A stretch of DNA of 38,547 nucleotides from Candidatus Sediminicultor quintus (GTDB lineage Bacteria; Atribacterota; Phoenicimicrobiia; Phoenicimicrobiales; Phoenicimicrobiaceae): positions 22,428 through 60,974 of the forward strand of contig MEYH01000090.1 of assembly GCA_001773955.1 (NCBI GenBank), given 5' to 3'. The position numbers were made by a program, and so were the translations under genes. Of the stretch, positions 6,230-35,776 are shown one piece after another; positions within the stretch are counted from its first letter, which is position 1, and the number at the start of each line of letters is the position of its first letter. The notes under the pieces are model-generated. The model was not told the DNA's origin. It saw nothing but the letters and a program-made list of their open reading frames with translations, and made no database searches.

Positions 6230-6250
6230 ATCCCCTCTGTTGACTTAGAT

Positions 6251-6455
6251 TCGTATCGAGTATCTCGTGAATCGTATCTCGTAAAGAGAATAGAAACCGA
6301 GAATCAGAATAAATTCGTATCGAGTATTTAGTAGGGGTTCGATTCATCGAACCCGTTTCGGGTCGGATAAATCCGACCCCTACATTAAAAACAAAACTTT
6401 AAACTGAAAACTGAAAACGTGTATTTAATACTAACGACTATTCACTATCGACTAT
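6251..6455. repeat. Composite intergenic repeat region (heptamer arrays, REP pair, module A)
   Basis: CGTATCG/AGTATCT units at left, REP pair in the centre, AAAACTG units then ACTAACG/ACTATTC/ACTATCG at right. Confidence 0.85.
6331..6383. repeat. Inverted pair of GTAG-type REP palindromes (REPIN-like)
   Basis: GTAG-GGGTTCGAT-TC-ATCGAACCC (6331-6354) and, on the minus strand, GTAG-GGGTCGGAT-TT-ATCCGACCC (6360-6383). Confidence 0.85.
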
Positions 6456-6457
6456 TT

Positions 6458-7063
6458 TTATTTTTCAATCTTGATCTTTTCTCCAATTTTTCTTTCTTTT
6501 TTTGATTTTAGTCTTTCAATATTTTCTTTATGTTTAAAAATACCTAAAACTAAGATTATCGCACCAAACACAATGTATTCATAAGGTTGTTTAAACAATA
6601 TTGTAAAAACAAAAATAGAAATTAGAGCGAAAATAGATGATAAAGAGGTGTATCTTGTTATTATTATAACAATCACCCAGACTGTTACTGCTAAAAGTGC
6701 TATTATCGGATTAAAAGCAAATACAACTCCAATTGTAGTAGCTATCCCTTTTCCGCCTTTAAACCCGAGGAATAAAGACCAGTCATGACCACAAATTACT
6801 GCTAACCCTGTAATAGTTAATATTAATAAATTATCAATATTGAAATGTTGTGCTAAATAGATAGAAAAAATACCTTTGCCAATATCGCCAATTACTACAA
6901 AAGAAGCTAATGAAGGTCCCAATATCCTAAGAGCATTGCTTGCACCTATATTTCCGCTTCCGTATTCTCTTATATCTACTTTCTTAAATAGTTTACCAAC
7001 AATATATCCAAAAGGTATGGAACCTAAAAGATAACAGCTTATAATTATTAGAGCAATCTTCAT
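6458..7063 (-). CDS. plsY: Acyl-phosphate:glycerol-3-phosphate acyltransferase PlsY
   Basis: YLLGSIPFG, GSGNIGASN, GHDWS..GFKGGKG, HKENI; hydrophobic membrane protein. Confidence 0.96.
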   Translation of the reverse strand: MKIALIIISCYLLGSIPFGYIVGKLFKKVDIREYGSGNIGASNALRILGPSLASFVVIGDIGKGIFSIYLAQHFNIDNLLILTITGLAVICGHDWSLFLGFKGGKGIATTIGVVFAFNPIIALLAVTVWVIVIIITRYTSLSSIFALISIFVFTILFKQPYEYIVFGAIILVLGIFKHKENIERLKSKKERKIGEKIKIEK

Positions 7064-8391
7064 ACTGTTTCCCTTTCCTCACTTTTTCTCGCTAAATCGA
7101 TAACTACAGGTGAGCCTTCAAAACCAAAGGTTTCATAAAATTTATTTTCTAAATATTTATGATAAGAAGTATACATTAATTTAGGATTGTTTACAAATAA
7201 TAGAAATGTAGGTGGTTTTATCCCTGTTTGAGTAGCGTATTTAATTTTTAGGGTATTCCCCACTACATATTTTGGAGGATTTTTAGAAATAACTTCTCTT
7301 ATAAAAACATTTATTGCCGAAGTGGGAATTTTTTTACTATATTGTAAGGCAACTTCTTTAATTTTTGAAATAATTTTATCCATATTATAACCTGTTATGG
7401 CAGAAGTCATTATAATGGGAGATTTTTTTAAAAAAGACAATTCATATCTTATCTCATCAATAAATAATTTTCTATCTATATTATCTTTAATTAAATCAAA
7501 TTTATTCAATATTATGATGCAGGCTTTTCTTTCTTTTTGAACATAATTTGCTATTTTTTTATCTTGCATACTAACTCCCTGTGTAGAGTCCAATATCAAT
7601 AACACTATATCTGAATTATGTACCGCTGTAAAAGTTCTTAATGTACTATAATATTCAACATCTTCTTTCGGTTTCGCTTTGCCTCTCAGGCCTGCGGTAT
7701 CGATAAACATTAATTTTAATGAATTATGTTTAAAAATTATTTCAATAGCATCTCTGGTAGTGCCGGGATGTTCGCTGACTATTATTCTATCTTCTCCTAA
7801 AATGCGATTTAATAAACTTGATTTTCCTACATTGGGTCTTCCAATAATTGATACTTTTATAAGGTTTTCTTCTTCTTCCGATTCTATTTTTATTTCTGAA
7901 ATATAAGATATTATTCTATCTAATAAATCATCAATATTTAAGCCGTGTTCTGCTGAAATAATATAGGGGTCTCCGAATCCTAATTCGTAAAACTCATATA
8001 ATTTTAATTCACTTCCCTTTACATCTCCCTTGTTGGCTACCAGGATACTTGATTTATTTTTTTCTCTAATCGCTTTAGCTACTTTAAAATCATCCGGATT
8101 TATTCCCTCTTTGACATCAACCAATAATATAATTAAGTCTGCCTCTTCAATAGCTAATTCAATCTGAACAGTTATTTTTTTTTGCAGTTCTTCCCTTTTT
8201 ATAAAATCCACACCTCCGGTATCTACCAGAGTAAATTGCTTTCCTTTCCATTCACATTCTGCATATATCCTATCTCTGGTAATCCCAGGTTCGTTTTCCA
8301 CAATAGCGGTTCTTTTCTTAGTGATTCTATTAAATAAGGTCGATTTCCCTACATTTATTCTTCCGATAATAGCAACAATAGGTTTTCTCAA
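7060..8391 (-). CDS. der: Ribosome biogenesis GTPase Der (EngA)
   Basis: Two G domains (GRINVGKS/DTGG/NKGD and GRPNVGKS/DTAG/NKFD). Start reassigned to TTG at 8391 behind a GGGAG RBS; the ORF-track extension to 8430 runs into a repeat. Confidence 0.96.
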   Translation of the reverse strand: MRKPIVAIIGRINVGKSTLFNRITKKRTAIVENEPGITRDRIYAECEWKGKQFTLVDTGGVDFIKREELQKKITVQIELAIEEADLIILLVDVKEGINPDDFKVAKAIREKNKSSILVANKGDVKGSELKLYEFYELGFGDPYIISAEHGLNIDDLLDRIISYISEIKIESEEEENLIKVSIIGRPNVGKSSLLNRILGEDRIIVSEHPGTTRDAIEIIFKHNSLKLMFIDTAGLRGKAKPKEDVEYYSTLRTFTAVHNSDIVLLILDSTQGVSMQDKKIANYVQKERKACIIILNKFDLIKDNIDRKLFIDEIRYELSFLKKSPIIMTSAITGYNMDKIISKIKEVALQYSKKIPTSAINVFIREVISKNPPKYVVGNTLKIKYATQTGIKPPTFLLFVNNPKLMYTSYHKYLENKFYETFGFEGSPVVIDLARKSEERETV

Positions 8392-8409
8392 GGTAAGCAC
8401 TCCCATCTT

Positions 8410-8466
8410 GTATAAAATACACAGTAACAAGTAATAAGTAATGAGTAATGAGCTTAAATTTCCTGA
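8410..8466. repeat. Dispersed module B containing AGTAA(C/T)(A/G) x4
   Basis: AGTAACA AGTAATA AGTAATG AGTAATG at 8423-8450; near-identical inverted copy at 32791-32844. Confidence 0.8.
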
Positions 8467-8479
8467 ATCGTAAAAACAG

Positions 8480-9139
8480 TTACTTATTCATAATGTTTTT
8501 TATTTTCTTTATGGTCATTTCAGGGTTTGCGCTTTTAGATATAATTTGACCAAGCACAATTATTTCTGCTCCGGCTTTAATCACCTCAGAAATATTATCT
8601 AAATTTATCCCGCCATCGACTGCTAAGCTTATTGATTTTTTTTGATTATCTATTATTTTTCTCGCCTTTTCTATTTTAGTAGTCATCTCCGGGATAAATT
8701 TCTGCCCGCCAAAACCCGGATTAACTGTCATTAATAATAACATGTCTATTTTATTAATTAAATACTCAATAACACTTAGAGTAGTTGCCGGGTTTAGAGC
8801 AATGCCGGATTTTACATCAGACTCATTAATAGTTTGGATAAGTCGGTCAAGGTGTTTAGAAGTTTCGTAATGTACAATTATAATATCTCCACCCGCATCA
8901 ACAAATGATTTAATGTGATTCTCCGGTTTTTCTACCATCAGATGAACTTCTAAGGGAAGAGAGGTTATGCTTTTAATTGATTCTACTATCCTGGGGCCAA
9001 AGGAAATATTCGGTACAAAATTTCCATCCATAATGTCTAAGTGAATTAAATCTGCTCCTCCGCTTTCTATCTTTCTTAATTCTCTTTCCAAACAGGTAAA
9101 ATCTACATCTAAGATTGAGACAGCCAATTTTTTTATCAT
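8480..9139 (-). CDS. rpe: Ribulose-phosphate 3-epimerase
   Basis: HLDIMDGNFVPNISFG, EVHLMV, MTVNPGFGGQ, VDGGIN. Confidence 0.92.
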   Translation of the reverse strand: MIKKLAVSILDVDFTCLERELRKIESGGADLIHLDIMDGNFVPNISFGPRIVESIKSITSLPLEVHLMVEKPENHIKSFVDAGGDIIIVHYETSKHLDRLIQTINESDVKSGIALNPATTLSVIEYLINKIDMLLLMTVNPGFGGQKFIPEMTTKIEKARKIIDNQKKSISLAVDGGINLDNISEVIKAGAEIIVLGQIISKSANPEMTIKKIKNIMNK

Positions 9140-9197
9140 AATTATAACACCGCCTATTTATATAAATAATTGTGTATTTTAAAAACTTTGGTAATAA

Positions 9198-10733
9198 TTA
9201 ATATAGCCATAATTTACGATCAAGGCTTCTATATTGAATAGATTCAGATAAATGAGAAACTTCAATCTTCTTTGATTGTTCTAAATCAGCTATGGTTCGG
9301 GCTACTTTTAATATACGGTCATAAGCTCGAGTACTTAAATTTAACTTTTCCATAGCCTTGTAAAGTAAATTTTTAGCATTGTCATCAATATTACAATATT
9401 CTTTAATCTGTTTTTTGGTCATTTGAGCATTACAAAAAATACTGTCTTCACAATATCTTTCTCTTTGTATTTTTCTTGCTTTTTCCACTCTTTCTCTTAT
9501 GGTAAAAGAGTTTTCTTCAAAATCTTTCTCCATGACTTCTCGACAATTTATCCGGGGGACTTCAATATGAATGTCAATTCGATCTAATAACGGGCCCGAT
9601 ATTTTTGAACGATATTTAACTATTTGAGACGAACTACAAGTGCAAACCTTAACCGGATCACCGTAAAAACCGCAAGGACAGGGATTCAGGGAAGATATCA
9701 ACATAAAAGAAGAAGTATAACTAACAGAGCTAAGAGAGCGTGAAATGGTGACTATCCCGTCTTCCAGGGGTTGACGTAGAGATTCTAAAGCACTTCGGGA
9801 AAATTCCGGTAGTTCATCTAAAAATAGTACACCATTATGGGCCAGGCTAATTTCTCCTGGTTTGGGTGTCTTGCCTCCTCCGATTAATCCAACATTACTT
9901 ATAGTATGATGCGGAGACCTAAACGGTCTCTCTGTAACCAAAGGGGTATCCGGTGGAAGTAAATTGGCAATACTATATAATTTAGTAATTTCTATAGATT
10001 CCTCCAGTGTTAAAGAAGGAAGGATGGTTGGAAGCCTGCGTGCCAGCATGGTTTTTCCGGAACCTGGCGGACCAATCATTATAACATTATGACTTCCAGC
10101 TGCTGCTACTTCCAAGGCTCTTTTAGCGTGTTCCTGTCCTTTGACATCAGAAAAATCTATTAGACTGTTTTCTCTTAGTCGAAAAATATCTTCTAAATCT
10201 ATGGATACCGGTTCAATGGATATTTTTTTATTTAAAAATTCAATTACTTCGTAAAGTGAATTAACCGGAAATACTTTTAATTCTTTAATTATCCCTGCTT
10301 CTTTTGCGTTTGCTTGAGGAATAAGCAATTTTATTTTACCCATTTTTTTTGCCATCAAAGCAATGGGAAGCACACCATTTACAGGTTTTATACTTCCATC
10401 TAAAGATAATTCACCCATAATTAGATATTCATTTAATAGATTTGGCTTAACTTGTTTACTGGCAGCTAAAATTGCCAGAGCAATAGATAGGTCAAAAATA
10501 GGACCTTCTTTTTTGATATCCGCTGGAGCAAGATTTACCGTAATTCTCTGCATAGGAAATTCGAATTCAGTATTTTTTATGGCGGCTCTAACTCTTTCTC
10601 GTGATTCCTGAACAGCCGTATCGGGCAATCCTACGATATTGAATGAAGGCAATCCCGGATGAATATCAACTTCGATCTCTACCATAAAAGCTTCTACTCC
10701 GAATATAGCCGCACTATATAATTTGGATAACAA
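9198..10733 (-). CDS. comM: YifB/ComM Mg-chelatase-like AAA+ ATPase
   Basis: [64 protein letters not shown]; TTG start. Confidence 0.92.
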
Positions 10734-10750
10734 AAAAACACCTACTTTTT

Positions 10751-10881
10751 AGTGAATAGTTATTAGTATCGCGTATCGAGTATCGCGTTAAGAAAATCAG
10801 AATTCAGAAATTCTGTTTTTGCTTCTTTATCTTTTCGTTTTTCGCTATACGTTTTTTCTTTACTATATACTCGATACTGAC
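10751..10881. repeat. Intergenic spacer bounded by inverted heptamer arrays
   Basis: Left AGTGAAT AGTTATT AGTATCG CGTATCG AGTATCG CGTTAAGAAAA; right TTTTCTTT ACTATAT ACTCGAT ACT, which is approximately its reverse complement. Confidence 0.8.
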
Positions 10882-11262
10882 TTAAAAGGCTGGATTATTA
10901 TCCAGACAAAAAGCATTCTTGATATGTTTTAAACTTTTTACATCTTTATGGTTAGAGATGCTGACCAATATTATATCGAAACAATAATTTTTCTCCCAAA
11001 GATGGTATTTAGCTAAATAACATAAAGCATTTTTAATTATTTTTCGTTGTTTATTAAAGTTTATTGCTTCTTCAGGATATCCAAACCTATTAGAACTCCT
11101 GGTTTTTACTTCCACAAAGATGATATTTCCCTTATATTCACTGATAATATCTATTTCTCCCAAGAAGGTACGATAATTTCTCTCTTTAATTTTGTAGCCC
11201 TTTTCTTCTAAATATTTAGAAGCTATATCTTCTCCAATTTTCCCTATATTATCCATCTTCAA
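10882..11262 (-). CDS. yraN: YraN family endonuclease-like protein (UPF0102)
   Basis: GKIGEDIA..YL...GY, RNYR, GEIDII, FVEVKTR; rnhB-yraN-comM context. Confidence 0.92.
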   Translation of the reverse strand: MKMDNIGKIGEDIASKYLEEKGYKIKERNYRTFLGEIDIISEYKGNIIFVEVKTRSSNRFGYPEEAINFNKQRKIIKNALCYLAKYHLWEKNYCFDIILVSISNHKDVKSLKHIKNAFCLDNNPAF

Positions 11263-11304
11263 TTATCATCTATTTTCGTATTATTATAATTGGTTATTTT
11301 CAAC

Positions 11305-12006
11305 CTATATCACCATTACTCCTTTATAGCTTTTTCTATGTATTTCTGATGGGCCGTACTTAAGTAGTGCTTCAAGATGCTCTTTTGTTCCATAACCTTT
11401 GTTTTTTTTGAAAAGGTACTGTGGATATTTTTGGTCATATTGAATCATAATATTATCTCTATAGACTTTAGCAACTATAGAGGCAGCAGCAATCGATATA
11501 CTTCTATCTTCACCTTTAATTAATGGTATCTGGAAAATATTTAGGTGAGGAATTTTAAAACCGTCCACTAATAAATAATCAGGTACTTCTTTTAAATCTA
11601 AAATAGCTTTTTTCATTGCCAAAAAAGAAGCCTGAGCGATATTTATTCTATCAATAATTTTAGCTTCTATAACACCAATTCCTACGTCTTTTGCCTTGCT
11701 TAAGATAGAATAATACAATTCTGTTCTTTTTTGTGAACTTAACTTTTTAGAATCTTTAATATAGGGAATAAACAATCGGCAGGGCAAAATTACTGCGGCA
11801 GCCACTACTGGCCCGGACAGTGAACCCCTGCCTGCTTCATCTATCCCGGCAACCAAAGAGTACCCTTCAAGTTTTAGTTGATTTTCATAGTTATAGAGAT
11901 TATAAATTCTTAATCTTTCTGCATATAATCTTTCAATTTTTCTCCGATAACTACAAATTATTGTTTTTGTTATTTTTGTTTTCCTATCTTTTGCCTCGGG
12001 CACCAT
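11305..12006 (-). CDS. rnhB: Ribonuclease HII
   Basis: AGIDEAGRG, DSKKL, LLVDG, IKGE, SIAAASIVAKVYRD, NKGYGT, HRKSY; exact start uncertain. Confidence 0.96.
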   Translation of the reverse strand: MVPEAKDRKTKITKTIICSYRRKIERLYAERLRIYNLYNYENQLKLEGYSLVAGIDEAGRGSLSGPVVAAAVILPCRLFIPYIKDSKKLSSQKRTELYYSILSKAKDVGIGVIEAKIIDRINIAQASFLAMKKAILDLKEVPDYLLVDGFKIPHLNIFQIPLIKGEDRSISIAAASIVAKVYRDNIMIQYDQKYPQYLFKKNKGYGTKEHLEALLKYGPSEIHRKSYKGVMVI

Positions 12007-12010
12007 TTAA

Positions 12011-12355
12011 TTATCTTTTTTCTTTAACTTTACTGGTTTTTCCAACCCTATCTCTTAAGTAATATAATTTTGCTCTTCTCGTTTTCCCTTTGGTTATAGT
12101 TAATATTTTTACAATATTCGGTGAATGCAATTGAAATACTTTTTCTATCCCAACACCTTTGGAAATTTTTCTTACTGTAAATGTTTCCTTACTTCCACCA
12201 TGTTTTTTAGCGATAACTACTCCCTTAAAAACTTGTACCCGCTCTCTGGTACCTTCAATAATTTTTTGATGTACTTCCACTGTATCACCAGGTGCAAATT
12301 CGCTGTTCTCTTTTTTAGACTGTTCTTCTTCTAATTGTTTTATGTAATCTACCAT
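12011..12355 (-). CDS. rplS: 50S ribosomal protein L19
   Basis: [46 protein letters not shown]; likely start ATG at 12355 (ORF track gives 12364). Confidence 0.97.
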
Positions 12356-12369
12356 AAAAATCATCCTTC

Positions 12370-13131
12370 CTAAATATTTTTTAAACTGTTTTCTAATGCT
12401 TTAAGTAAAGTTAACTCTCTTTTAAACAACCTTTTATTTACAAAAATTTCAGGCCTTCTAATCAAAGTTCTTAATAGAGACTGTTTCCTTCTCCATTCTT
12501 CGATTTCTTTATGATTACCCGAAAGCAATATATCCGGAACTTTAAGACCTTTAAAATCATCCGGTCTGGTATAATGAGGAAAATCAAGATATCCGTTATA
12601 AAATGAATCATTGACCATAGATTCTTCTTTTCCTAAAACTCCGGGAATCATTCTCGAAATTGCATCTACCATTAACATGGCTGGTAATTCTCCTCCGCTA
12701 ACTACAAAGTTACCGATTGATACTTCCTCTGCATCGAGAAGCTGAGGTATCCGTTCATCTATGCCCTCATATCGACCGCAAATGATTAATAATCTATTTT
12801 CTTTCGACAAATCTTTAGCCATCCCCTGGTTAAAAATCTTCCCCTGTGCCGAAGTGATTATAATTTTTAAAGGTAATGGAGATTTGTTTTTTTTTATCAC
12901 CTCTACCGCATCCCAAATTGGTTGAGGTTTTAAAACCATACCAGGCCCTCCGCCATAAGAATAATCATCTACAGTCTTATGTTTGTCCAGAGTAAAATCT
13001 CTAAGGTCAATTAGATTTATTTTGATCAGTCCTTTTTCTTGAGCCTTATTCAATATGCTTTCGGAAAAAGGGCTTTTAAACATATTGGTAAAAATAGTTA
13101 ATATATTAATTTCTAAACAATCATTTATCAT
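12370..13131 (-). CDS. trmD: tRNA (guanine-N1)-methyltransferase TrmD
   Basis: [46 protein letters not shown]. Confidence 0.98.
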
Positions 13132-13637
13132 ATTAATCCATCTACCATGTTTATGGTAATTCGTTTTTTTTCTAAATTAACATTCTTTACAACTTCACGA
13201 ATAGCCGGGATAAACAATTCTTTTATATTTTTTCCTTTAACTATATATACATCATTGCTTCCCGTACTTATCACATTTTCTACTTTTCCCAGAAAAACAT
13301 TATTTTCGGTATACACTTCAAGTCCAATTATCTCAAAGATAAAATAAGTGTTTTTGGGTAGTTTCACAGCATTTTTTCTTTCAACTTCAAGAAAAGACCC
13401 TACTATTGTTTTGGCTTCTTTGATATTTTCTATATCCTTTAATTTTAAAATAACCATATCTTTTTTTATTCTTATCTTCTCTATATTTAATATTGTTTGG
13501 CAATTGTTATTTCTTAAAAAAACGGAAACTATGTTTTTAAATCTGTCGATTGAATCGGTAAGGGGCAAAACTTTAACTTCACCTTTATTGCCCTGGGTAG
13601 AAACTACTTTACCAATTATAATAAATTCTTGATTCAA
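13128..13637 (-). CDS. rimM: Ribosome maturation factor RimM
   Basis: IGKVVSTQGNKGEVKV, IIGLEV, TGSNDVYIV, FIPAI; TTG start with AGGAG RBS; rpsP operon position. Confidence 0.95.
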   Translation of the reverse strand: MNQEFIIIGKVVSTQGNKGEVKVLPLTDSIDRFKNIVSVFLRNNNCQTILNIEKIRIKKDMVILKLKDIENIKEAKTIVGSFLEVERKNAVKLPKNTYFIFEIIGLEVYTENNVFLGKVENVISTGSNDVYIVKGKNIKELFIPAIREVVKNVNLEKKRITINMVDGLI

Positions 13638-13661
13638 TAAAATTTCTCCTTAATGCTAATT

Positions 13662-13904
13662 AGTATATAGTATATCGTATATAGTATATAGTAAAGAGAT
13701 AAAAAGATAGAAATAAGAAGATATAAATTAATATATCACCTATCGCATTTCGCGTGAAAATAAATATAAATTATTAAATATCATTGCGGGGCGAAGTCGT
13801 AGTAATCTAATTAAGATTGCTTCTAAAAACCGAGAACTGAAAACGTTTATTTCATACTAACGACTATTCACTATTCACTAACGACTAATACACTAACGAC
13901 TAAT
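13662..13904. repeat. Composite intergenic repeat region between khpA and rimM
   Basis: (A/C)GTATAT x4 at 13662-13689; TCATTGCG-type remnant at 13781-13823; module A and ACTAACG/ACTATTC array at 13826-13904. Confidence 0.85.
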
Positions 13905-13905
13905 T

Positions 13906-14136
13906 TTAATCGACAATTTCGATAACCGCTCGCTTATCATCCTTCTGCGCAGCAGCATTTACTATAGTTCTTATTGACTTTATATTTCTGCCTTGCTTTC
14001 CTATTACTTTACCTATGTCATTAGGATCAACCTTTATTTCAAATATCGATGCTTTTTCACCGATAATTTCATTTATCTCTACCTGGTTTGGATTGTCTAC
14101 TATCCCTTTTATAATTAATTCAATAAGTTCTCTCAA
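13906..14136 (-). CDS. khpA: KH-domain RNA-binding protein KhpA (YlqC/UPF0109)
   Basis: DIGKVIGKQGRNIKSIRT GxxG KH loop; between rpsP and rimM. Confidence 0.93.
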   Translation of the reverse strand: MRELIELIIKGIVDNPNQVEINEIIGEKASIFEIKVDPNDIGKVIGKQGRNIKSIRTIVNAAAQKDDKRAVIEIVD

Positions 14137-14157
14137 AATAATCTCCTTGGGTCTTAT

Positions 14158-14406
14158 CTATTTTTTCAATATTCCTTCTTTCTTAAATAAATCTTTTATT
14201 GTTACTGAAAGTTGAGCACCCTTTTCGATCCATTTTAAACTTGCCTCCTGGTCAATCTTAAGAACATAAGGATCAGAAAGTGGTTGATAATATCCTAATT
14301 GTTCTATAAATTTAGCATTACAAGCTCTCCTCGAATCGATTACCACTACTTTGTAAAAAGGTTTTTTCTTGCCACCTTCTCTTCTAAGTTTAATTTTCAC
14401 TGACAT
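14158..14406 (-). CDS. rpsP: 30S ribosomal protein S16
   Basis: SVKIKLRREG.KKKPFYKVVVIDSR, FIEQLGYYQP, WIEKGAQ; likely start ATG at 14406 behind GGAGG. Confidence 0.97.
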   Translation of the reverse strand: MSVKIKLRREGGKKKPFYKVVVIDSRRACNAKFIEQLGYYQPLSDPYVLKIDQEASLKWIEKGAQLSVTIKDLFKKEGILKK

Positions 14407-28257: not shown

Positions 28258-28317
28258 AGTTTTTTCCTCCCAATCTTTTACCTATATTTAAACTTTATAA
28301 TTTATTTCTAAATATTT

Positions 28318-29319
28318 TTATACTTCTCCTGCTTGTAATACGGTAATTGCTACTACATTAACTATGTCTTCGGCAGTACAACCGCGAGAAAGGTCATTGA
28401 CCGGTTTTCTCATCCCCTGAGAGATGGGACCTATGGCCTCAGCTTTAGCTAATCTTTCTATTAATTTATAAGCAATGTTTCCAGAATTTAGATCGGGGAA
28501 TATCAGGACATTGGCTTTTCCGGCAATTTTACTGTTTGGAGCTTTTCGCTCTCCGATTGAGGGAATCAATGCAGCATCAGCCTGAAGTTCTCCATCAATA
28601 AGTAATTCCGGCTTCTTTTCTTTGGCAATTTTTACAGCCTCGATTACTTTATCAACTAAAGGATGTTTGGCACTTCCCTTAGTGGAAAAAGATAACATGG
28701 CTACTTTTGGTTCAAAGCCAACCAGTGCTTTTCCAGTTGCAGCGCTGGCGATAGCAACATCGGCAAGCTGTTCGGCATTTGGTTCCGGATTTAAAGCACA
28801 ATCAGCAAAAACGATGATTCCCTTTTCTCCATAAGGGCAATCAGGTACCACCATAATAAAAGAACTGGAAACAATATTTATACCAGGGGCAGTTTTTATA
28901 GTCTGTAGAGCTGGTCTAAAAACATCTCCTGTGGCATTAATAGAACCGGCAACTAAACCATCTGCATCATCATGATAGACCATTAATGCACCAAAATAAA
29001 GAGGATTTTCCAATAATTGATAAGCTTCGTCTAAGCTTACTCCTTTATTTTTACGAATTTGGTAATATGATTCAGCATATTCTTTTAATTTTTCCGAATC
29101 TTTGGGGTTTATTATTTTAATCTTATTCGGTAAATCAATTCCCAATTCCCGGGCTTTAGACTTAATATTTTCTTCTCTTCCTAAAAGTATCAAACTGGCA
29201 AAACCTTCATTAATAATAGTATTCGCCGCTTTAATCATCCGCGGCTCTTCACCCTCCGGAAGCACAATAATTTTAGGATTTTTTTTAGCTTTTTCTCGAA
29301 TAAGTTGTGATAATTTCAT
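28318..29319 (-). CDS. pta: Phosphate acetyltransferase
   Basis: [54 protein letters not shown]. Confidence 0.97.
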
Positions 29320-29440
29320 TTATCTTCTCCTTTTAATTAATATTTATTAATGTAAACATTGGTGTGGTATTTGGAGAAAGAAAAGAATAGTTTTAATTAC
29401 TATCTATTCTATCTTCTTTTCCCTGGTACTTTTCTTTCTA

Positions 29441-29531
29441 TTTCTTTACGCAATACGTAATATTATCTTATATTCTAATTTTGAATTCTATTTTCATCTC
29501 GCAATAGGATATACGATATACGATATACGAT
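29441..29531. repeat. Heptamer array region upstream of pta
   Basis: TCTTTACG boundary motif at 29443-29450; GCAATAG then GATATAC x3 at 29501-29528. Confidence 0.7.
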
Positions 29532-29560
29532 TAAATTACTATCAATTTTATTGCAAATTT

Positions 29561-29575
29561 TGTATAATTATAACA
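29561..29575. promoter_or_regulatory. Candidate overlapping divergent -10 elements for tmcAL (+) and pta (-)
   Basis: TATAAT on + at 29563-29568; TGtTATAAT (extended -10) on minus at 29567-29575. Confidence 0.45.
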
Positions 29576-29603
29576 TAAAATATTTTTTAAATCGAGAAAT
29601 CTT

Positions 29604-30926
29604 ATGAAAATATTAGGAATAATTACTGAATATAATCCTTTTCATAATGGCCATCTTTACCATCTTTTTAAAGCAAAAGAAATAACCCGAGCAGATTATG
29701 TAGTAGCAGTAATGAGCGGAAATTTCCTGCAGAGAGGAGAGCCGGCAATTATAAATAAATGGGCTCGAACAAAGATGGCATTAAATGCCGGTGTTGATCT
29801 GATAATTGAACTCCCTTTTGTTTTTTCTACTCAAGATGCAAACGGTTTTGCCTTTGGCGCAGTAAAATTACTTGATTCGCTTAAGATTATAGATTATTTA
29901 TGCTTTGGCTGTGAAACTGATAACCTTGATACCCTATACTCTATAAGCAATTTTTTAGATGCTGAACCACAAAAATATAAAGAATTGATAGTATACTATA
30001 GCAAAAAGGGGTACGAATTTCCCAAGGCAAGGAGTCAGGCCTTATGTGAATATCATAGAATATTAGGGTTAGAAGGTTTAGAAAAAATATCAACTTTAGA
30101 GTTAAGTAAATTATTAAAATACCCCAATAACATTTTAGCTTTAGAATATATAAAACATCTATTAAATTTAAAGAGCAAAATCAAGCCTATAGCCATAAAA
30201 AGAATAGGGGCAAGCTATCATCAAAAAAATATTAAAGGTAAAATTTCCAGTGCCACCTCTATCAGAAATGAAATACTGAATAACTTGAGCCCCCCTAAAA
30301 CCGACCTTTTTATACTAAATGATAAAATAAAATCAACCATTCCTCCATCAGGATTTTCTGTATTAGAGAGTGAATTAAGAGAAGGCAGAGGGCCTATTAC
30401 CCTCGACTCTTACCGGCAATCTATTTTTGCTATATTAAGAAGAATGTCATCGGATGATATTTTCCGTATTCAGGGAGTAACCGAAGGATTAGAAAATAGA
30501 ATAGAGAAAGCATCTTTAAAATCTTATACTACTGAACAACTAATTAATGCAATTAAAACCAGGAGATATACCCGTACTAAAATTCAGCGCATAATTTTAC
30601 ACATTATGATGAATCTATCCAAAGGAGATATATCCATATTCAATAAGTATGGGCCTTTGTATGCAAGGGTTTTGGGATTCTCTAAAAAAGGGAAAACTTT
30701 ATTAAGAGCTATTAAAAAAAATTCTTCTACACCTTTAATCAGTAAATTATCAAATTATTTAAGGCAAATAATTTACGAGGAAAATAATCGTGTTCAAAAT
30801 AGTTTAGTGAAGATGCTTGATTATGACATTCTCGCTACTGATATATATGTTCTTGGAAATAAAAAAGCAGAAGATAGGGTGGCTCGGCTTGATTTTACCC
30901 ACAAAATAGAGATGAAAGAAGACTAA
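29604..30926 (+). CDS. tmcAL: tRNA(Met) cytidine acetate ligase TmcAL (YlbM, HIGH nucleotidyltransferase)
   Basis: EYNPFHNGH, MSGNFLQRGEPA, FGCE, PNNILALEY, SATSIR, EGLENR, KTRRYTRTKIQR. Confidence 0.9.
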   Translation: MKILGIITEYNPFHNGHLYHLFKAKEITRADYVVAVMSGNFLQRGEPAIINKWARTKMALNAGVDLIIELPFVFSTQDANGFAFGAVKLLDSLKIIDYLCFGCETDNLDTLYSISNFLDAEPQKYKELIVYYSKKGYEFPKARSQALCEYHRILGLEGLEKISTLELSKLLKYPNNILALEYIKHLLNLKSKIKPIAIKRIGASYHQKNIKGKISSATSIRNEILNNLSPPKTDLFILNDKIKSTIPPSGFSVLESELREGRGPITLDSYRQSIFAILRRMSSDDIFRIQGVTEGLENRIEKASLKSYTTEQLINAIKTRRYTRTKIQRIILHIMMNLSKGDISIFNKYGPLYARVLGFSKKGKTLLRAIKKNSSTPLISKLSNYLRQIIYEENNRVQNSLVKMLDYDILATDIYVLGNKKAEDRVARLDFTHKIEMKED

Positions 30927-30935
30927 ATTATTAGA

Positions 30936-30960
30936 AGGGCACAATGAATTGTGCCCCTAC
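30936..30960 (-). repeat. Single GTAG-type REP between convergent genes
   Basis: Minus strand GTAG-GGGCACAAT-TC-ATTGTGCCC. Confidence 0.8.
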
Positions 30961-31083
30961 AAAAGATACGAATTTATTCTAAATTCTATTTTCTGGCTCC
31001 TATCTTCTTTCTTTTATTTGTTATACAACCGCTAACCAGCTAACCAACTAACATATTTTATCATCTGTAATAATTTATCATTT

Positions 31084-32076
31084 TTATAATTTTATTAATT
31101 TCATTATTGCATCATCAAAATCATCAACCGGGATGATTCTAATACCATGACTGAATTTAAGAGCTTCTGGGTAATTTTTTTGAGGCACTAAAAATACATC
31201 GGCTTTATGTTTTTTTGCAGATATTATTTTTTGTTTAATTCCATCTACTTCGGTTATTCTCCCATCCATACTTAAATTACCGGTACCGGCGATCAACAAA
31301 CCACTGCTTAGATCGTTTTCGGTTAATTGATTCAACATTTCTAAGGCGATCATTAGACCAGCAGAAGGTCCTTTTATCTTTTCTAAATCTATTTCTATTT
31401 TTAAGGGGAATCTGCATTGAAGATCTTTAGTATCAGCATAGATACCTATCCCTATTCCTTCTGTTTCGTCATCAGTACCAGGAAGTTCAATGAGAGGAAT
31501 TGATGTTGAATAAGTACTATTATCTCTTAAAAAAGTAATTTTTACAATTTGACTTAAATTATAACTTCTGATAATTTCTGAAAATTCTTCCAGAATATAA
31601 ACCGGTTGCTCATCAATTTTTATAATCACATCACCCGGTAATAATTTATTTTTTGCCGGACTATTATCCAATATTCCGTTAATCAATATTCCCCGTCCTG
31701 ATATTTCAGTAGAATATCCTGCTTTCCTTATAGCTACAACCTGGGAAATCATCTGGCTTTCCTGCATTAATTTTTCCATTATATCAATATAATCTTTTTG
31801 TTTCATATTCAATAATATTTCATCATCCTTATTTTTTAAATCGATATTAGGGTCAAAAAACCCATAAATATATAATAATAAATTAGCTTTTATTATAGCG
31901 GTTGAAGTGAGGAGGAATTGGCCTTTAGCGTCTTTTTCGCCGTTTTCCACCGTAATATTTTTACTAAGATTGATGGCCTGCCCGGGAATTATCAGGAAAT
32001 AGGGAGTAGGCATTAGATTAAGTAAGAATAGAACTGTGATTATAATAATTAAAAAATATCTTTTAAAATAGTACAT
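31084..32076 (-). CDS. Membrane-anchored PDZ domain / Lon-like (S16) protease, YlbL-like
   Basis: N-terminal TM segment, PDZ SPAKNKLLPGDVI, GPSAG catalytic Ser, IAGTG, GIKQKI. Confidence 0.88.
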   Translation of the reverse strand: MYYFKRYFLIIIITVLFLLNLMPTPYFLIIPGQAINLSKNITVENGEKDAKGQFLLTSTAIIKANLLLYIYGFFDPNIDLKNKDDEILLNMKQKDYIDIMEKLMQESQMISQVVAIRKAGYSTEISGRGILINGILDNSPAKNKLLPGDVIIKIDEQPVYILEEFSEIIRSYNLSQIVKITFLRDNSTYSTSIPLIELPGTDDETEGIGIGIYADTKDLQCRFPLKIEIDLEKIKGPSAGLMIALEMLNQLTENDLSSGLLIAGTGNLSMDGRITEVDGIKQKIISAKKHKADVFLVPQKNYPEALKFSHGIRIIPVDDFDDAIMKLIKL

Positions 32077-32158
32077 TGTTTCTCTTTATTACCCAGATAG
32101 GTTTATATTCCGATTCAATAATAAATATTTTCACTAAAAAAATTGCTAAAGTTCTTTT

Positions 32159-32647
32159 TTAAGCTTTTCTATTAAAAAATAATGTCTTTAACTTTTTCTC
32201 TACAATTTCCGGGACCAACTGGGATATGTTACCATTTAAACTCGCTATTTCTTTAACTATACTGGAATTTAAATAAGAATACTTGGAACAAGTAACCAAA
32301 AAAATTGTTTCAATCTCCGGAGCAAGTCCTTTATTCATTAAAGCCAGTTGTGATTCATGTTCAAAATCAGAGATGGCTCTCATCCCCCTGATGATAATAT
32401 TTGCTTTATTTTTTCTCACAAAATCAGTTAATAAACCGGAAAATGACAGCACTTCAACATTCTCCAAATCCTTGATGGCCTCTTTTATCATATCTGCTCT
32501 TTCTTGGGCTGAAAACAAAGTTGATTTTTTAGAATCGACTGCCACTGCTACTATTAATTTATCAACAATTATTATAGTTCTTTTAATGATATTTAAATGG
32601 CCATTAGTAATTGGATCAAAACTACCTGGATAAACGGCAATTTTCAT
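32159..32647 (-). CDS. coaD: Pantetheine-phosphate adenylyltransferase
   Basis: AVYPGSFDPITNGH, IRGMRAISDFEHE, SSIVKEIA. Confidence 0.97.
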   Translation of the reverse strand: MKIAVYPGSFDPITNGHLNIIKRTIIIVDKLIVAVAVDSKKSTLFSAQERADMIKEAIKDLENVEVLSFSGLLTDFVRKNKANIIIRGMRAISDFEHESQLALMNKGLAPEIETIFLVTCSKYSYLNSSIVKEIASLNGNISQLVPEIVEKKLKTLFFNRKA

Positions 32648-32663
32648 TTTTCCCTCCTTTATT

Positions 32664-32859
32664 AGTGGATAGTGAATAGTCGTTAGTATATAGTATCGCG
32701 TATTGCGTATAGTGATTCAGTATCGAGTATCGAGTAAAGATTCAGACACTTTTATACTTTTATTTTTAATAAGTACTTATTTTTATAATTTCAGAAATTT
32801 AAGCTTATTACTCATTACATATTACTTGTTACTGTATTTTATACGATATACGATATACG
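32664..32859. repeat. Spacer bounded by heptamer arrays and containing module B
   Basis: About ten AGT/CGT heptamers at 32664-32740; module B at 32791-32844; GATATAC units at 32841-32859. Confidence 0.85.
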
Positions 32860-32861
32860 GA

Positions 32862-33419
32862 TTAGATATTAACATAATCGTAAAAAGATAGATAGCACTC
32901 TCCGTATCTTCTTTGATTAAACAGTCTCAAATTATTTATATTTTCCAAAACTTTTTCTTTTTTGTGATGTTGGGCAATCACCAAGCCATTATGTCTCAAT
33001 ATAGGTAATTTCGCTATTTCTAACAAAGAAATGTTTACCAGCCCTCTGCTGTAAGGAGGGTCAAGAAAGATGTAATCCAATAGATAATTTTTTTTAACTA
33101 ATAATTTTAAACCGGACAAAAAATCTATTTTGTAAACTACAACATTTTGGCTGTTTCCAGTTTTTTCTAAATTATCTTTTATAATTTTTACACATTTTGG
33201 TTCTCTCTCGATAAATATTACTTCTCTTGCTCCCCTGCTTAAGGCTTCAATTCCTACTGCACCGGTACCTGCAAATAGATCTAAAAAGCAGGTTTCCTTG
33301 ACAGATGTTCCCAAAATATCAAATAAAGCTTCCCTCACTTTTTCAGAAGTAGGACGAACAGATAAATCCTTGGGGGATTTTAATATATTACCTTTATTCT
33401 TACCAGCAACAATTCTCAT
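32862..33419 (-). CDS. rsmD: 16S rRNA m2G966 methyltransferase RsmD
   Basis: MRIVAG, RPTSEKVREALF, LDLFAGTGAVGIEALSRG, FLDPPY; start reassigned to ATG at 33419. Confidence 0.95.
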   Translation of the reverse strand: MRIVAGKNKGNILKSPKDLSVRPTSEKVREALFDILGTSVKETCFLDLFAGTGAVGIEALSRGAREVIFIEREPKCVKIIKDNLEKTGNSQNVVVYKIDFLSGLKLLVKKNYLLDYIFLDPPYSRGLVNISLLEIAKLPILRHNGLVIAQHHKKEKVLENINNLRLFNQRRYGECYLSFYDYVNI

Positions 33420-33433
33420 AATTTTACCTTTCG

Positions 33434-33647
33434 AATTAGTCGTTAGTGAATAGTGAATAGTCGTTAGTATTAAATACACGTTTTCGGTTTTTGGTTCTCG
33501 GTTTTCAGTAAATAGGGCTGTATTGCTTGTTTTATTAACCGGTAAACCGGGTAACTGAGTAAACTATACATACGAGATACGAATTAGACTTCTTTCTTCT
33601 TCTTTTCTTAACTAACTAACCAGGTAATCACTTAACCAGCTAACTAA
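33434..33647. repeat. Composite repeat region: module A (inverted), TTTTCGG-type heptamers, octamer arrays
   Basis: AGTCGTT AGTGAAT AGTGAAT AGTCGTT; TTTTCGG TTTTTGG TTCTCGG TTTTCAG; octamers at 33535-33566 and 33608-33647. Confidence 0.85.
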
Positions 33648-33680
33648 ATATTATAAACTTTAAATTATTTATATTATTAC

Positions 33681-33710
33681 TTGCCAAGACTTTATATAAT
33701 ATGATAAAAT
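33681..33710 (+). promoter_or_regulatory. Candidate rpmB promoter
   Basis: TTGCCA-N18-TAAAAT with a TG extended -10, followed by an AGGAGG RBS. Confidence 0.6.
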
Positions 33711-33755
33711 GTCTACTGTTAGATATTTTTTACAACTAACAGGAGGAAATATAAA

Positions 33756-33944
33756 ATGGCAAAATGTGATATTTGTGGTAAAGGTCCACAATTTGGCAAT
33801 AAAATAAGCCACTCTCATAGAGTTACTAAAAGAATGTGGCATCCCAATATACAAAAAATAAAAACAAATATTGATAATACCGTAAAAAGAATTAATATCT
33901 GTACTAAATGCTTAAAAGCTAGTAAGGTAAAGAAAAGTTCTTAA
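33756..33944 (+). CDS. rpmB: 50S ribosomal protein L28 (zinc-binding form)
   Basis: CDICGKGPQFGNKISHSH, TKRMWHPNIQ, CTKCLK. Confidence 0.97.
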   Translation: MAKCDICGKGPQFGNKISHSHRVTKRMWHPNIQKIKTNIDNTVKRINICTKCLKASKVKKSS

Positions 33945-34783
33945 CCATACCATTCTTTAAGTTTATCAATAATTTCATTAGTTATCCAGTCAGGAGTAGA
34001 GGTACCACTAACAATTCCAACTTTACCTTCAGGATAAAACCATTTATATTTTAGTTGGTTTTTAGTTTCAATATGATAAGTCTTTACTCCCTGATTCTTA
34101 CCTATTTCTGCTAATCGAGTTGTATTGGCGCTTTCCTTTCCTCCAATCACCAACATCACATCTACTTCTTTTGCCAACTCAAGTACGCTCTTTTGTCTTT
34201 CCGTGGTAGATTTACATATTGTATTAAATATTCTTAATTCCTCAGCTCTGTTTAACAGGGCAGATGATAATTTAAAAAAATCATAAATATTTTTGGTGGT
34301 TTGAGATATAAAACCAATTTTTTTCTTTGTGGTTATCTTCTCTACATCGGGAATTGAATTTATTACTAAAGCATTGTTTTGAATCGTATCCAATAAACTT
34401 AGTACTTCGGGATGTTTTTTGTCTCCATAGACAACTATAAAATAGTTCTTCTCGTATAAATAACGCGCTATTTTTTGTACTTTTCTAACATATGGACAGG
34501 TAGTGTCAACTACCGATAATTTTTTTTGGTAAGCTTTTTTAAGCATTGTAGGAGAAATACCGTGCGCCCTGGTTATAACCGTGCCTTCTTCCGGAACTTC
34601 ATCTAAAGTATCTGCTATCTTTACTCCCTTTTTTATAAAATATTCTATAACCTGAGGATTATTTATTATTGAACCCAGCATATACAGGTTATTTTTTCTT
34701 GCTTTTAAGGCATTTTTGGCTAATTTTACGGATTTTTTGACTCCAAAACAAAATCCCATTCTTTTAGATAATATTATTTTCAA
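33941..34783 (-). CDS. ispH: 4-hydroxy-3-methylbut-2-enyl diphosphate reductase IspH
   Basis: GFCFGV, RAHG, DTTCPYV, HPEV, SQTT, NTICKST, SAN, GTSTPDW; no S1 fusion. Confidence 0.94.
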   Translation of the reverse strand: MKIILSKRMGFCFGVKKSVKLAKNALKARKNNLYMLGSIINNPQVIEYFIKKGVKIADTLDEVPEEGTVITRAHGISPTMLKKAYQKKLSVVDTTCPYVRKVQKIARYLYEKNYFIVVYGDKKHPEVLSLLDTIQNNALVINSIPDVEKITTKKKIGFISQTTKNIYDFFKLSSALLNRAEELRIFNTICKSTTERQKSVLELAKEVDVMLVIGGKESANTTRLAEIGKNQGVKTYHIETKNQLKYKWFYPEGKVGIVSGTSTPDWITNEIIDKLKEWYG

Positions 34784-35489
34784 TTTGTTTTTCCCTGCAT
34801 TCTCTAATTTTTTTTATTATCTTTAAAATTTTATCTTTAACTTCTTCAATGTTTTTGTTTGTAGAATCTATAAGAATAGCATCTTTTGCCTTGATCAAAG
34901 GGGCATATTTTCTCTTACTATCAATTTTATCCCTCTGCATTATCTGTTTTTTAACTACTTCGTAATCTATATTATAACCTTTATTTATTAGTTCTCTATA
35001 CCTTCTTTTAGTTCTTTCCTCCTCAGAAGCAGTAAAATAGAGTTTTATATCAGCCTGCGGTAAAATTATCGAACCTATATCTCTACCTTCCATTATAATG
35101 TTCCCTTTTTCAGCTAATTTTCTCTGCAGATAAATTAATTGTTTTCTAATTTTGGGCAATCTGGCTACCTGAGAAACATTTTGATCAATCCTGGGATTGC
35201 GTATTTCCTCAGTTACATCTTCTCCGTCAACAAAGATGTGATAATAATCATTTGGACTCTTATTATTTGCTCTCTCTATAGTTATACAAATATCTGAAAC
35301 CAGGTTGGAAATCATTTCTTCATCATTTATACTAATACTATTTTTTAGAACCTTCCAGGTTATTGCCCTGTAAATTGCTCCTGTGTCAATATATAAAAAG
35401 CCTAATTCTTGTGCAATCAATTTACCCATAGTGCTTTTTCCCACAGCAGCTGGTCCATCTATAGCGATTACTAAACCATTATTTTTCAT
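34764..35489 (-). CDS. cmk: Cytidylate kinase
   Basis: IAIDGPAAVGKST, DTGAIYR, MEGRDIG, RDKIDSKR..APL. Confidence 0.97.
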   Translation of the reverse strand: MKNNGLVIAIDGPAAVGKSTMGKLIAQELGFLYIDTGAIYRAITWKVLKNSISINDEEMISNLVSDICITIERANNKSPNDYYHIFVDGEDVTEEIRNPRIDQNVSQVARLPKIRKQLIYLQRKLAEKGNIIMEGRDIGSIILPQADIKLYFTASEEERTKRRYRELINKGYNIDYEVVKKQIMQRDKIDSKRKYAPLIKAKDAILIDSTNKNIEEVKDKILKIIKKIRECREKQIENNII

Positions 35490-35501
35490 TAATTCACCCC
35501 A

Positions 35502-35769
35502 AATTAGTCGTTAGTGAATAGTGAATAGTCGTTAATTTATCCTATTGCGTATCGAGTATCGCTTAAAGAAAATTATTTTTTTCAATTATCGACTATCAGT
35601 ATATTAAATTTTCTGTTATCGCTTCGTCATTTCTTTTTGTAATGACATTTCTGTTTTTTTTATTCTTAATTCTGTCTTCTATCTTCTTAACGAGATACGA
35701 ATTTATCTCCTGAATTCTTCTCTCTTTAATTTTCTTTACGATATCCGATATACCATATACGATATACTA
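35502..35769. repeat. Spacer bounded by inverted heptamer arrays
   Basis: AATTAGTCGTTAGTGAATAGTGAATAGTCGTTA (35502-35534) is identical to 33434-33466; TAAAGAAAATTA (35564-35575) / TAATTTTCTTTA (35727-35738); GATATAC-type array to 35769. Confidence 0.85.
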
Positions 35770-35776
35770 TAAACTG

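Follow-up and report, generated by a model that had tools for sequence, protein, structure and literature searches.

Short tandemly repeated repetitive (STRR) sequences, which are tandem arrays of heptamers, were reportedly described in heterocystous cyanobacteria by Mazel and colleagues in 1990; many cyanobacterial STRR units carry an AGT anchor, CCCCAGT being an example of a classical unit. Small dispersed repeats (SDR) nested in the heptamer repeats of Nostoc are said to have been reported by Elhai and colleagues in 2008, with recent mobility inferred and no known enzyme. In Escherichia coli and Pseudomonas, the repetitive extragenic palindrome (REP), bacterial interspersed mosaic element (BIME) and REPIN families, with their REP-associated tyrosine (RAYT) transposases, are extragenic inverted-doublet hairpins of mosaic composition that vary between strains. 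We know of no accepted origin or function for STRR sequences or for the heptamer repeats of Beggiatoaceae. The excerpted text of PMC4692102 mentions the STRR heptamers of heterocystous cyanobacteria and that of PMC5861425 the SDR nested in Nostoc heptamer repeats, while the excerpted text of MacGregor (2015, PMC4679880) describes intergenic direct repeats of TAACTGA in marine Beggiatoaceae, Cyanobacteria and Bacteroidetes; the patchy occurrence of these repeats across phyla points to horizontal spread by a mechanism that is not known. The present analysis concerns a window of 38,547 nt from Candidatus Sediminicultor quintus (Atribacterota; GenBank assembly GCA_001773955.1, contig MEYH01000090.1, positions 22,428 to 60,974 of the forward strand), in which six spacers between core genes are bracketed by polarised, inverted heptamer arrays. 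On balance, these spacers appear to be small non-autonomous hairpin elements with arms made of tandem AGTNNNN arrays, which would represent an Atribacterota expansion of the STRR/heptamer-repeat phenomenon.

Heptamer arrays in the window

Arrays were detected in the window using Tandem Repeats Finder (TRF), a regular-expression scan for at least three consecutive (A/C)GTNNNN units on both strands, and direct reading of the sequences. TRF identified period-7 arrays at both ends of all six spacers, and the scan returned 18 arrays in nine gaps, all 18 of which face inward, with AGT-reading arrays on the plus strand at the left of a gap and on the minus strand at the right. The shared architecture proposed for the six spacers in an earlier sequence-only reading was therefore recovered by all three approaches, and the heptamers that it had named are among the commonest array units of the whole genome (AGTCGTT 262, AGTGAAT 235, AGTATAT 146, AGTATCG 141 and CGTATCG 40). 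In five of the six spacers the arrays lie 0-10 nt from the stop codon and about 4-12 nt from the ribosome-binding site (RBS), in agreement with the close abutment noted earlier, the exception being the spacer at 26468-26901, where they lie about 51 and 55 nt from the gap ends.

The content of the spacers is mosaic. Comparison of the six spacers with the genome using BLAST indicated that nearly all of their bases recur elsewhere, some parts 64 or more times, except for the RBS region and the centre of the spacer at 13638-13905. A typical arm consists, from the outside inwards, of an AGTCGTT/AGTGAAT array, a (A/C)GTATCG or (A/C)GTATAT array, GTAAAGA and a purine-rich tail; an alternative arm carries AGTATTAAATACA followed by AGTTTTC-type heptamers, and GTAGGGG...CCCCTAC hairpins and a 'TGTCATTGCGA...GAAGCAATCTC' element are interleaved with these families. 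A 106-nt form of the compact stop-hairpin-RBS module described below is present in this genome at C56:8691-8796.

All six spacers are read on the minus strand, and their fold z-scores were calculated for the mRNA-sense RNA against 100 dinucleotide shuffles. The spacer between plsY and the DUF362/Fe-S gene (6230-6457; z -2.62) carries arrays at 6252-6286 and 6316-6336 (plus) and ACT-type arrays at 6392-6419 and 6426-6453, with a GTAGGGG...CCCCTAC double hairpin in its interior (6331-6383) and a dispersed repeat over nearly its whole length. Between UPF0102 and the gene for a ComM-like Mg-chelatase ATPase (10734-10881; z -2.72), the arrays occupy 10751-10792 (plus) and 10858-10878 (minus) and the 24-nt arms are 83% complementary. 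The khpA-rimM spacer (13638-13905; z -0.99, 31 end-to-end pairs) has an AGTATAT/CGTATAT array at 13662-13696 (plus) and an AGTCGTT/AGTGAAT array at 13852-13886 (minus); its centre (13721-13822) is single-copy in this genome, yet conserved in several congeners. The arrays of the ackA-rpmF spacer (26468-26901; z -3.87) are found at 26539-26566 (plus) and 26826-26846 (minus), those of the rsmD-coaD spacer (32648-32861; z -0.73) at 32664-32712 and 32719-32739 (plus) and 32839-32859 (minus), and those of the rluB-cmk spacer (35490-35776; z -2.99, 40 end-to-end pairs) at 35506-35533 (plus) and 35755-35775 (minus).

One-sided versions, which had also been pointed out, are present at three further sites. 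An array of AGTATAT AGTATCG AGTTAAG lies inward-facing at the left side of the rpmF-fapR gap (26086-26106, plus strand), a CGTATAT array lies inward-facing at the right side of the divergent gap between pta and a HIGH-NTase gene (29509-29529, minus strand), and an AGTCGTT/AGTGAAT array (33438-33472, plus strand) lies just upstream of the probable true start of rsmD. The GTG start of the longest rsmD ORF (open reading frame; 32862-33479, start at 33479) is probably overcalled, since only from residue 21 onwards do its 205 aa match Pfam; the true start is probably downstream of the 33438-33472 array, and the ispH-rsmD gap would then be about 520 nt long. Separately, an AGTAATA/AGTAATG array of the same polarity, which falls outside the gap-filtered counts, was observed at the left edge of the rpe-der gap (8423-8452), where it overlaps the annotated TTG start of der and suggests that this start is overcalled.

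The window derives from a 1.95-Mb genome of 35% GC in 113 contigs. Candidatus Sediminicultor sextus, whose Der shows 95% protein identity, is its nearest relative with a name, and its close relatives are all Atribacterota metagenome-assembled genomes (MAGs). Almost all genes of the window lie on the minus strand and together they form a conserved housekeeping run in the order scpB, rluB / cmk, ispH, rsmD / coaD, ..., pta, ackA / rpmF, fapR, plsX..., smc, ftsY, ffh, rpsP, khpA / rimM, trmD, rplS, rnhB, UPF0102 / comM-like, rpe, der, plsY / DUF362, topA, the six slashes marking the six spacers under study.

Genome-wide periodicity and polarity

Gene boundaries across the genome were taken from crude ORF calls, by which 16.5% of the genome is non-coding. 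Triplets of AGT-anchored units, (AGT....)x3, occur 301 times at period 7 as compared with 5, 12, 6 and 11 times at periods 5, 6, 8 and 9, and the ACT equivalent occurs 358 times as compared with 3, 8, 10 and 7 times. The genome contains 478 arrays, 400 of which are fully intergenic. Polarity was assessed for the 345 arrays lying wholly within gaps that measure 30 nt or more and contain no N; the 133 remaining arrays, which overlap ORF calls, contig ends or N runs, were dropped. The 5' end of the AGT reading points toward the nearer gene boundary in 281 of these 345 arrays, and the AGTCGTT/AGTGAAT class is inward in 91 of 104. The median distance from array to gene is 21 nt for the outer side, as compared with 187 nt for the inner side. 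When arrays are read in the sense of the nearest gene, those closest to a stop codon are AGT-reading in 126 cases and ACT-reading in 39, and those closest to a start codon are ACT-reading in 155 cases and AGT-reading in 25. Gaps with both orientations have the order "+ then -" in 61 cases and "- then +" in 2, side-by-side hairpins being absent (0), and both outer distances are at most 25 nt in 21 of the 61 two-ended spacers. The orientation rule seen in the window thus extends to the whole genome (281/345; 61 vs 2), and random orientation was not seen.

This polarity relative to start and stop codons also bears on the possibility that the arrays are protein-binding sites forming a regulatory network, in which a binder would read a 3-nt anchor every 7 nt and arrays would spread by recruiting it. 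Candidate binders would be S1, cold-shock or CsrA-like proteins, recruited beside start or stop codons; HutP is a protein that recognises UAG-N4 repeats. The preference for ACT near starts (155 vs 25) and AGT near stops (126 vs 39), and an invariant AGT/ACT anchor followed by four variable bases across many unit types, are consistent with such binding, as are, in the excerpted texts of the two sources, the orientation toward start codons of 147 among the 170 sets of TAACTGA that one Beggiatoaceae genome contains (PMC4679880) and an effect of heptamer-repeat deletion on reporter expression in a Nostoc preprint (10.1101/2022.06.06.494920). However, the genome yielded no match to the HutP family, orthologous sites can dispense with the arrays, no protein sharing their distribution came to light in this analysis, and the coexistence of many different units speaks against a single specific binder. 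A binding network of this kind, including recruitment of the proteins named, is therefore considered quite unlikely.

Turnover among congeneric genomes

In the congeneric genomes G011 and G012, all 38 window genes are syntenic (78-98% protein identity), but length differences above 15 nt affect 16 of the 37 gaps in either genome, all six spacers being among them. Some gaps that are short in the window are long in G011 (11263-11304, 42 to 213 nt; 12365-12369, 5 to 116 nt). The plsY-DUF362 spacer, 228 nt in the window, is reduced to 10-16 nt (the RBS only) in 6 of 14 congeners and measures 97-455 nt in the remaining 8, and the 148-nt UPF0102-comM spacer is represented by 33 nt in 2 of 15 congeners and by 75-596 nt in the rest. 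The khpA-rimM spacer (268 nt here) ranges from 32 to 349 nt in 14 congeners and the rsmD-coaD spacer (214 nt here) from 67 to 604 nt in 11, while the counterpart of the rluB-cmk spacer is 195 nt long in G011 and 190 nt in G012. The number of units differs between orthologous arrays, and inward polarity is preserved across species despite other content and unit families, for example AGCGTAT...ATACGCT. The orthologous spacers of congeners thus include both filled and empty sites, and their content turns over.

A MITE-like (miniature inverted-repeat transposable element) palindromic element of ~290-315 nt lies within the ackA-rpmF spacer, at about 26536-26849. It has terminal arms of 26 nt that are 92% complementary and a second inverted layer inside (26601-26650 / 26768-26817), and it is without an ORF. 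The same element lies in the plsY junction of G008 (94% identity) and of G009; at least ten near-full copies are present in G008, with up to 97% identity over 291 nt, and two in this genome, the outer arrays varying between copies. The sequence-only reading had suggested that the spacers could be empty or decayed copies of a small mobile cassette whose cargo or mobiliser lies elsewhere. The part of this idea that concerns mobility agrees with a multi-copy element of ~290 nt occupying different loci in different species, whereas neither a cargo ORF nor a mobiliser tracking the arrays was found in the comparisons described here.

The further claim that arrays never enter a coding sequence holds in the window and does not hold beyond it: according to the crude gene calls, 48 of the 478 arrays in the genome overlap an ORF and 30 lie inside one, and in congeners the stop codon of plsY is supplied by an array, so that entry into coding sequence does occur. 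At four loci (L128, L131, L132 and L138) the plsY frame runs into the array and stops at the TAG of the first heptamers, and at L133 the TAG stop of plsY directly precedes a GCGTT-type array. PlsY accordingly ends in different residues, and the repeats thus remodel protein C-termini.

As a separate observation, G013 (L121) shares nearly the whole khpA-rimM spacer of 244-268 nt with this genome (L106), its RimM being only 75% identical; in closer relatives, with RimM identities of 91-93%, the spacer is different or empty. Sharing with G013 reflects either exchange by recombination or an ancestral spacer with repeated loss.

Imperfect inverted repeats between co-directional genes, placed directly after stop codons, also recall an integron-like cassette array, in which the inverted arrays would be attC-like sites between gene cassettes; by geometry, ACT...AGT arrays bracket each gene. 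However, the genes concerned are universal core genes whose order is identical (38/38 in G011 and G012) and never shuffled, some species have empty junctions, and the heptamers, compared by eye, are unlike the attC core consensus GTTRRRY. This explanation is regarded as extremely unlikely.

RNA folding

In the six spacers, 5 to 40 base pairs are predicted between the end thirds, and z is at most -2.6 in four of the six. Across the genome, tandem gaps of at most 450 nt that carry arrays of both orientations (n=45) have a median z of -4.29; z is lower than -2 in 34 of these 45 gaps, and 38 of the 45 form 10 or more end-to-end pairs. Tandem gaps without an array (45 sampled of 305) have a median z of -2.06 (Mann-Whitney p = 0.0035 against the two-orientation set), and one-sided tandem gaps (45 sampled of 88) a median z of -2.81. 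Folding beyond that of dinucleotide shuffles is therefore observed both in four of the six spacers and in the 45 two-ended spacers. Random orientation, lack of a folding excess and invariant spacers, the three outcomes that the sequence-only reading had named as telling against its proposal, were thus each absent. The sense RNA is more stable than the antisense RNA in 34 of the 45 gaps; after correction for composition, no strand asymmetry was found in these gaps (z -4.29 vs -4.35, p = 0.10). It had been proposed that the two ends pair in the mRNA and bring the stop codon next to the following RBS. The folding excess supports pairing, whereas neither complementarity specific to the partner arm nor a strand asymmetry specific to RNA was detected.

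A scan of the whole window at Rfam gathering scores gave 0 matches, and no excess of promoters or terminators over shuffled sequences was found in 6000-14500. Contigs assembled from RNA runs (X15, X16) and DNA runs (X3, X5) over 16100-36000 break at the arrays and have a very high summed depth over the repeat bins; contig joints with short sides probably represent other copies of the repeats. One contig from run X15 joins 29457 to 29512 with 54 nt missing, an indel polymorphism.

The hairpins could alternatively constitute a functional intercistronic RNA module, in which a post-stop AGU arm would pair with a pre-RBS ACU arm and loop out the insert. The role of this module would be either that of a site for RNase III processing or mRNA stabilisation, or that of a translational coupling device in which a ribosome terminating at the stop codon opens the foot of the stem and thereby exposes the following RBS. 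Stems within a few bases of the stop codon and the RBS in five of the six spacers (both within 25 nt in 21 of 61), the strong folding excess, the absence of a terminator excess in 6000-14500 and the compact stop-hairpin-RBS versions of viral contigs and other phyla described below all argue for it. Since the elements lie inside conserved operons (rpsP-khpA-rimM-trmD), they must be read through, which also counts in its favour, and a translational role for heptamers oriented to start codons is proposed in the excerpted text of MacGregor (2015, PMC4679880). However, the presence of the module is not conserved, the same gene pairs having spacers of 10-47 nt in congeners; the arms lack partner-specific complementarity, the corrected sense and antisense z-scores show no difference (p = 0.10), and array-bearing spacers are mostly one-sided. 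A functional RNA module is therefore held to be possible but rather unlikely, and either of the roles just named is doubtful to the same degree.

Distribution in Atribacterota, other phyla and viruses

In a sample of the phylum comprising 86 genomes, 28 of the 29 members of this family carry the 17-mer AGTCGTTAGTGAATAGT, with 4-115 copies each, as compared with 1 of 22 members of the sister family and 0 of 34 genomes from other families; a reversed control pattern gave 0 matches. The restriction within the phylum is thus to one family. GTDB species genomes contain the exact AGTCGTT/AGTGAAT 21-mer, for which about 0.3 chance occurrences are calculated for 596 Gb, in at least 105 stretches; among the matches listed, most are Atribacterota and the other carriers are Omnitrophota, Planctomycetota, Nitrospirae and Syntrophorhabdaceae. 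It is also present in a Phycisphaerae MAG of 57% GC, in a Eubacteriales MAG of 62% GC and in the cultured cyanobacterium Aetokthonos hydrillicola, where it adjoins an inverted pair of other heptamers. The isolate Thiohalocapsa halophila (69% GC) carries a second array type, which was also found in MAGs of Omnitrophota, Dysgonomonas and Anaerolineales. Arrays at loci of other phyla are inward in 9 cases and outward in 3, and those at other Atribacterota loci in 121 and 26 cases, respectively.

Nine IMG/VR viral contigs (L219-L227; 44-47% GC, two sequence groups) carry AGTCGTT/AGTGAAT arrays, and six of the nine contain an identical module in which a TGA stop is followed by 11 nt, by AGT and ACT arrays on either side of a loop of 4 nt, and then by AGGGAGG and ATG. 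In one of the two groups a complete module of this kind separates two genes. Modules with this stop-hairpin-RBS layout fold as single long hairpins in viral (z -5.2), Omnitrophota (z -6.6) and Nitrospirae (z -4.6) sequences; a fourth locus, L039, forms no such single hairpin (z -1.1). During these comparisons, Der sequences 91-95% identical to that of the window were encountered at L263 and L264 in MAGs labelled Patescibacteria and Promethearchaeota, probably owing to mis-binning. Since Atribacterota-like contigs are present in MAGs of other phyla, low-GC hits such as L008 may be mis-binned too.

Ordinary microsatellites, arising by polymerase slippage on chance heptamer duplications and confined to intergenic DNA by purifying selection in genes, would agree with the variable unit number of orthologous arrays, and the excerpted text of Rehm (2015, PMC4692102, citing Mrazek 2007) gives slippage as the explanation for the over-representation of heptamer simple sequence repeats in bacteria. 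Slippage is nevertheless strongly disfavoured and judged to be very unlikely, as it predicts neither the inward polarity (61 vs 2), nor identical mixed-unit 21-mers in genomes of 35% to 62% GC and in viruses, nor the restriction to one family and the relocation of a composite element of 290 nt.

Observations weighing against hairpin elements

Several observations weigh against the reading of the spacers as small hairpin elements. Polarity is weak in convergent (10 vs 6) and divergent (20 vs 14) gaps, and 160 of the 223 array-bearing spacers have arrays of a single orientation. In the two-ended spacers, the outer array classes agree at both ends in 31 of 61 cases, a weak match given that about 23 are expected from the marginals, and pairing with the own partner is no stronger than with a swapped one (median -16.8 vs -16.8 kcal/mol; own better in 33/61, p = 0.098). 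The khpA-rimM spacer has only the 5' array in G011 and no array in G017, and comparison of orthologues suggests that the two arms of one spacer can be acquired separately. A single palindromic unit would therefore leave part of the polarity unexplained: one-sided gaps and separate arms imply that something at each gene boundary also fixes the orientation, whether selection at gene ends or an insertion step that is itself orientation-specific. No clean target-site duplication was found when filled and empty sites and the flanks of copies were compared, the ends being blurred by variable arrays and AT-rich sequence.

The search for a mobiliser points in the same direction. The genome has six Y1 (IS200/RAYT-like) transposase genes encoding 257-320 aa, each between its own short inverted repeats, and heptamer arrays flank none of the six. 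At the level of the Pfam family, Y1 (PF01797) is as common in the array-poor sister family (20 of 22 genomes) as in the array-rich one (28 of 29), and RVT_1 (reverse transcriptase) was not found in the genome, other transposase families lying outside the search. No autonomous copy or cargo was found among the array-bracketed gene loci, 9 proteins from 7 of 24 such loci all being housekeeping enzymes. Finally, some of the cross-phylum MAG hits may be mis-binned Atribacterota contigs, which would not explain the matches in isolates and on high-GC contigs.

Other repeat families were observed alongside the arrays. REP-like GTAGGGG...CCCCTAC hairpins, often in doublets, occur at 6331-6383 of the window and in G000 (C15, C48, C110 and others), one of them ~110 nt downstream of the C15 Y1 gene. 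A second dispersed element, 'TGTCATTGCGA...GAAGCAATCTCAA...GATTGCC', is found in spacers of the genus, including the khpA-rimM spacers of L110, L115 and L120, and at many G000 loci; window 13721-13822 looks like a degenerate remnant of this element. A promoter-like module, 'GGCTTAC(G/A)GAAAAAGGAAATTCC-TATACAAT', lies at 26496-26535 on the minus strand of the window and also in G000 C3, C4, C18, C83 and C87, with 6 genome copies at up to 5 mismatches, and is situated directly outside some arrays, toward the downstream gene.

Proposed mechanism

Under the interpretation of the spacers as non-autonomous hairpin elements, an element or a separately acquired arm would have the form 5'-(AGTNNNN)n ... 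(NNNNACT)n-3' on either strand, and this layout would make the arrays face inward from both gene boundaries. The AGT...ACT palindrome is identical on both strands, which would account for a polarity that ignores gene direction and for the presence of just one of the possible inverted arrangements. Elements would accumulate only where tight core operons tolerate them, in the short stretch that separates a stop codon from the following RBS, and the arrays would abut both because elements gather in these stop-to-RBS gaps; the tolerance itself would be the outcome of selection. Turnover between species would be rapid, mobility being its presumed cause, with gain, loss, change in array length and the lodging of further elements between the arms, while gene order remains fixed. 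The elements would be transcribed within the operon mRNA, where the arms could pair with the interior looped out. The resulting RNA hairpin may have a role of its own, as fold-out, coupling or RNase III functions are physically plausible and are made attractive by the compact phage version.

An extension of this proposal, which is considered unlikely, is that heptamer hairpins are distinct self-propagating intercistronic elements, borne by phages across phyla. Their propagation would involve recognition of a folded single strand, the addition and nesting of arms and the setting of orientation, and at the RNA level the insert would be silenced, the folded RNA either preserving coupling or being trimmed by RNase III. 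If true, such self-propagation would account for the origin of the cyanobacterial STRR sequences, which has been open since 1990.

Comparison with known repeat systems

The repeats resemble REP, BIME and REPIN sequences in lying between co-transcribed genes as hairpins in one preferred arrangement (61 vs 2) and in being mosaic and variable, and REP-like hairpins of the form GTAG...CTAC are present in the Atribacterota genome together with its six RAYT-like Y1 genes. In contrast to REP sequences, which are single palindromes of 20-40 nt, the arms here are heptamer arrays; no Y1 gene is flanked by them and the presence of Y1 does not track the arrays. With MITEs, the element at 26536-26849 shares terminal inverted repeats (26 nt, 92%), lack of an ORF, multiple copies and loci that differ from species to species, but no clean target-site duplication was seen, the outer arrays are interchangeable and the loci checked include no autonomous parent. 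The SDR of Nostoc are likewise described as very small repeats embedded and nested in tandem heptamers, whereas the Atribacterota elements are larger composites in another phylum.

As in STRR sequences, the 7-nt units are tandem, widely dispersed and mainly intergenic, and a 21-mer is common to Aetokthonos hydrillicola and Atribacterota. Unlike in STRR sequences, the host is not a heterocystous cyanobacterium and the unit repertoire is another one, no classical cyanobacterial STRR unit being found among the top 50 array units of this genome; the arrays are, moreover, polar and paired inward, with MITE-like cores, and are gained and lost between congeners. The TAACTGA repeats, according to the excerpted text of MacGregor (2015, PMC4679880), share the ACT-type reading in the mRNA sense a few bases before starts (147/170 there, 155 vs 25 here) and the patchy cross-phylum spread, but consist essentially of one unit with 1 inverted set in 170, as opposed to the many unit families and 61 inverted-pair spacers of the present genome. 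AGTTATC, the AGT-register form of TAACTGA, occurs only 6 times among the array units here. An equally strong AGT-after-stop rule and the retention of the RBS between array and start codon further set the Atribacterota arrays apart.

The system therefore differs from STRR sequences, TAACTGA repeats, REP/BIME/REPIN and MITEs in its multi-family heptamer arms, in inverted pairing as the rule, in its interchangeable outer arrays, in having no associated transposase and in its Atribacterota host. No report of such repeats in Atribacterota was found in the literature searched, to which the supplementary repeat tables of MacGregor (2015) and Rehm (2015) did not belong, nor was the "AGT...ACT only" rule found stated, Elhai (2008) and supplementary tables again being outside the search.

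Significance

In practical terms, the repeats break metagenome assemblies, leaving loose ends at arrays, and inflate ORF calls at gene ends, and the MAG taxonomy of cross-phylum matches is not safe at face value. The Atribacterota family constitutes a natural experiment, with syntenic core operons in ~19 congeneric genomes whose junctions are empty in some and filled in others. Together with the orientation rule (61 vs 2) and the modules of viruses and distant phyla, this synteny makes the origin of the repeats, their movement and their action in mRNA directly testable.

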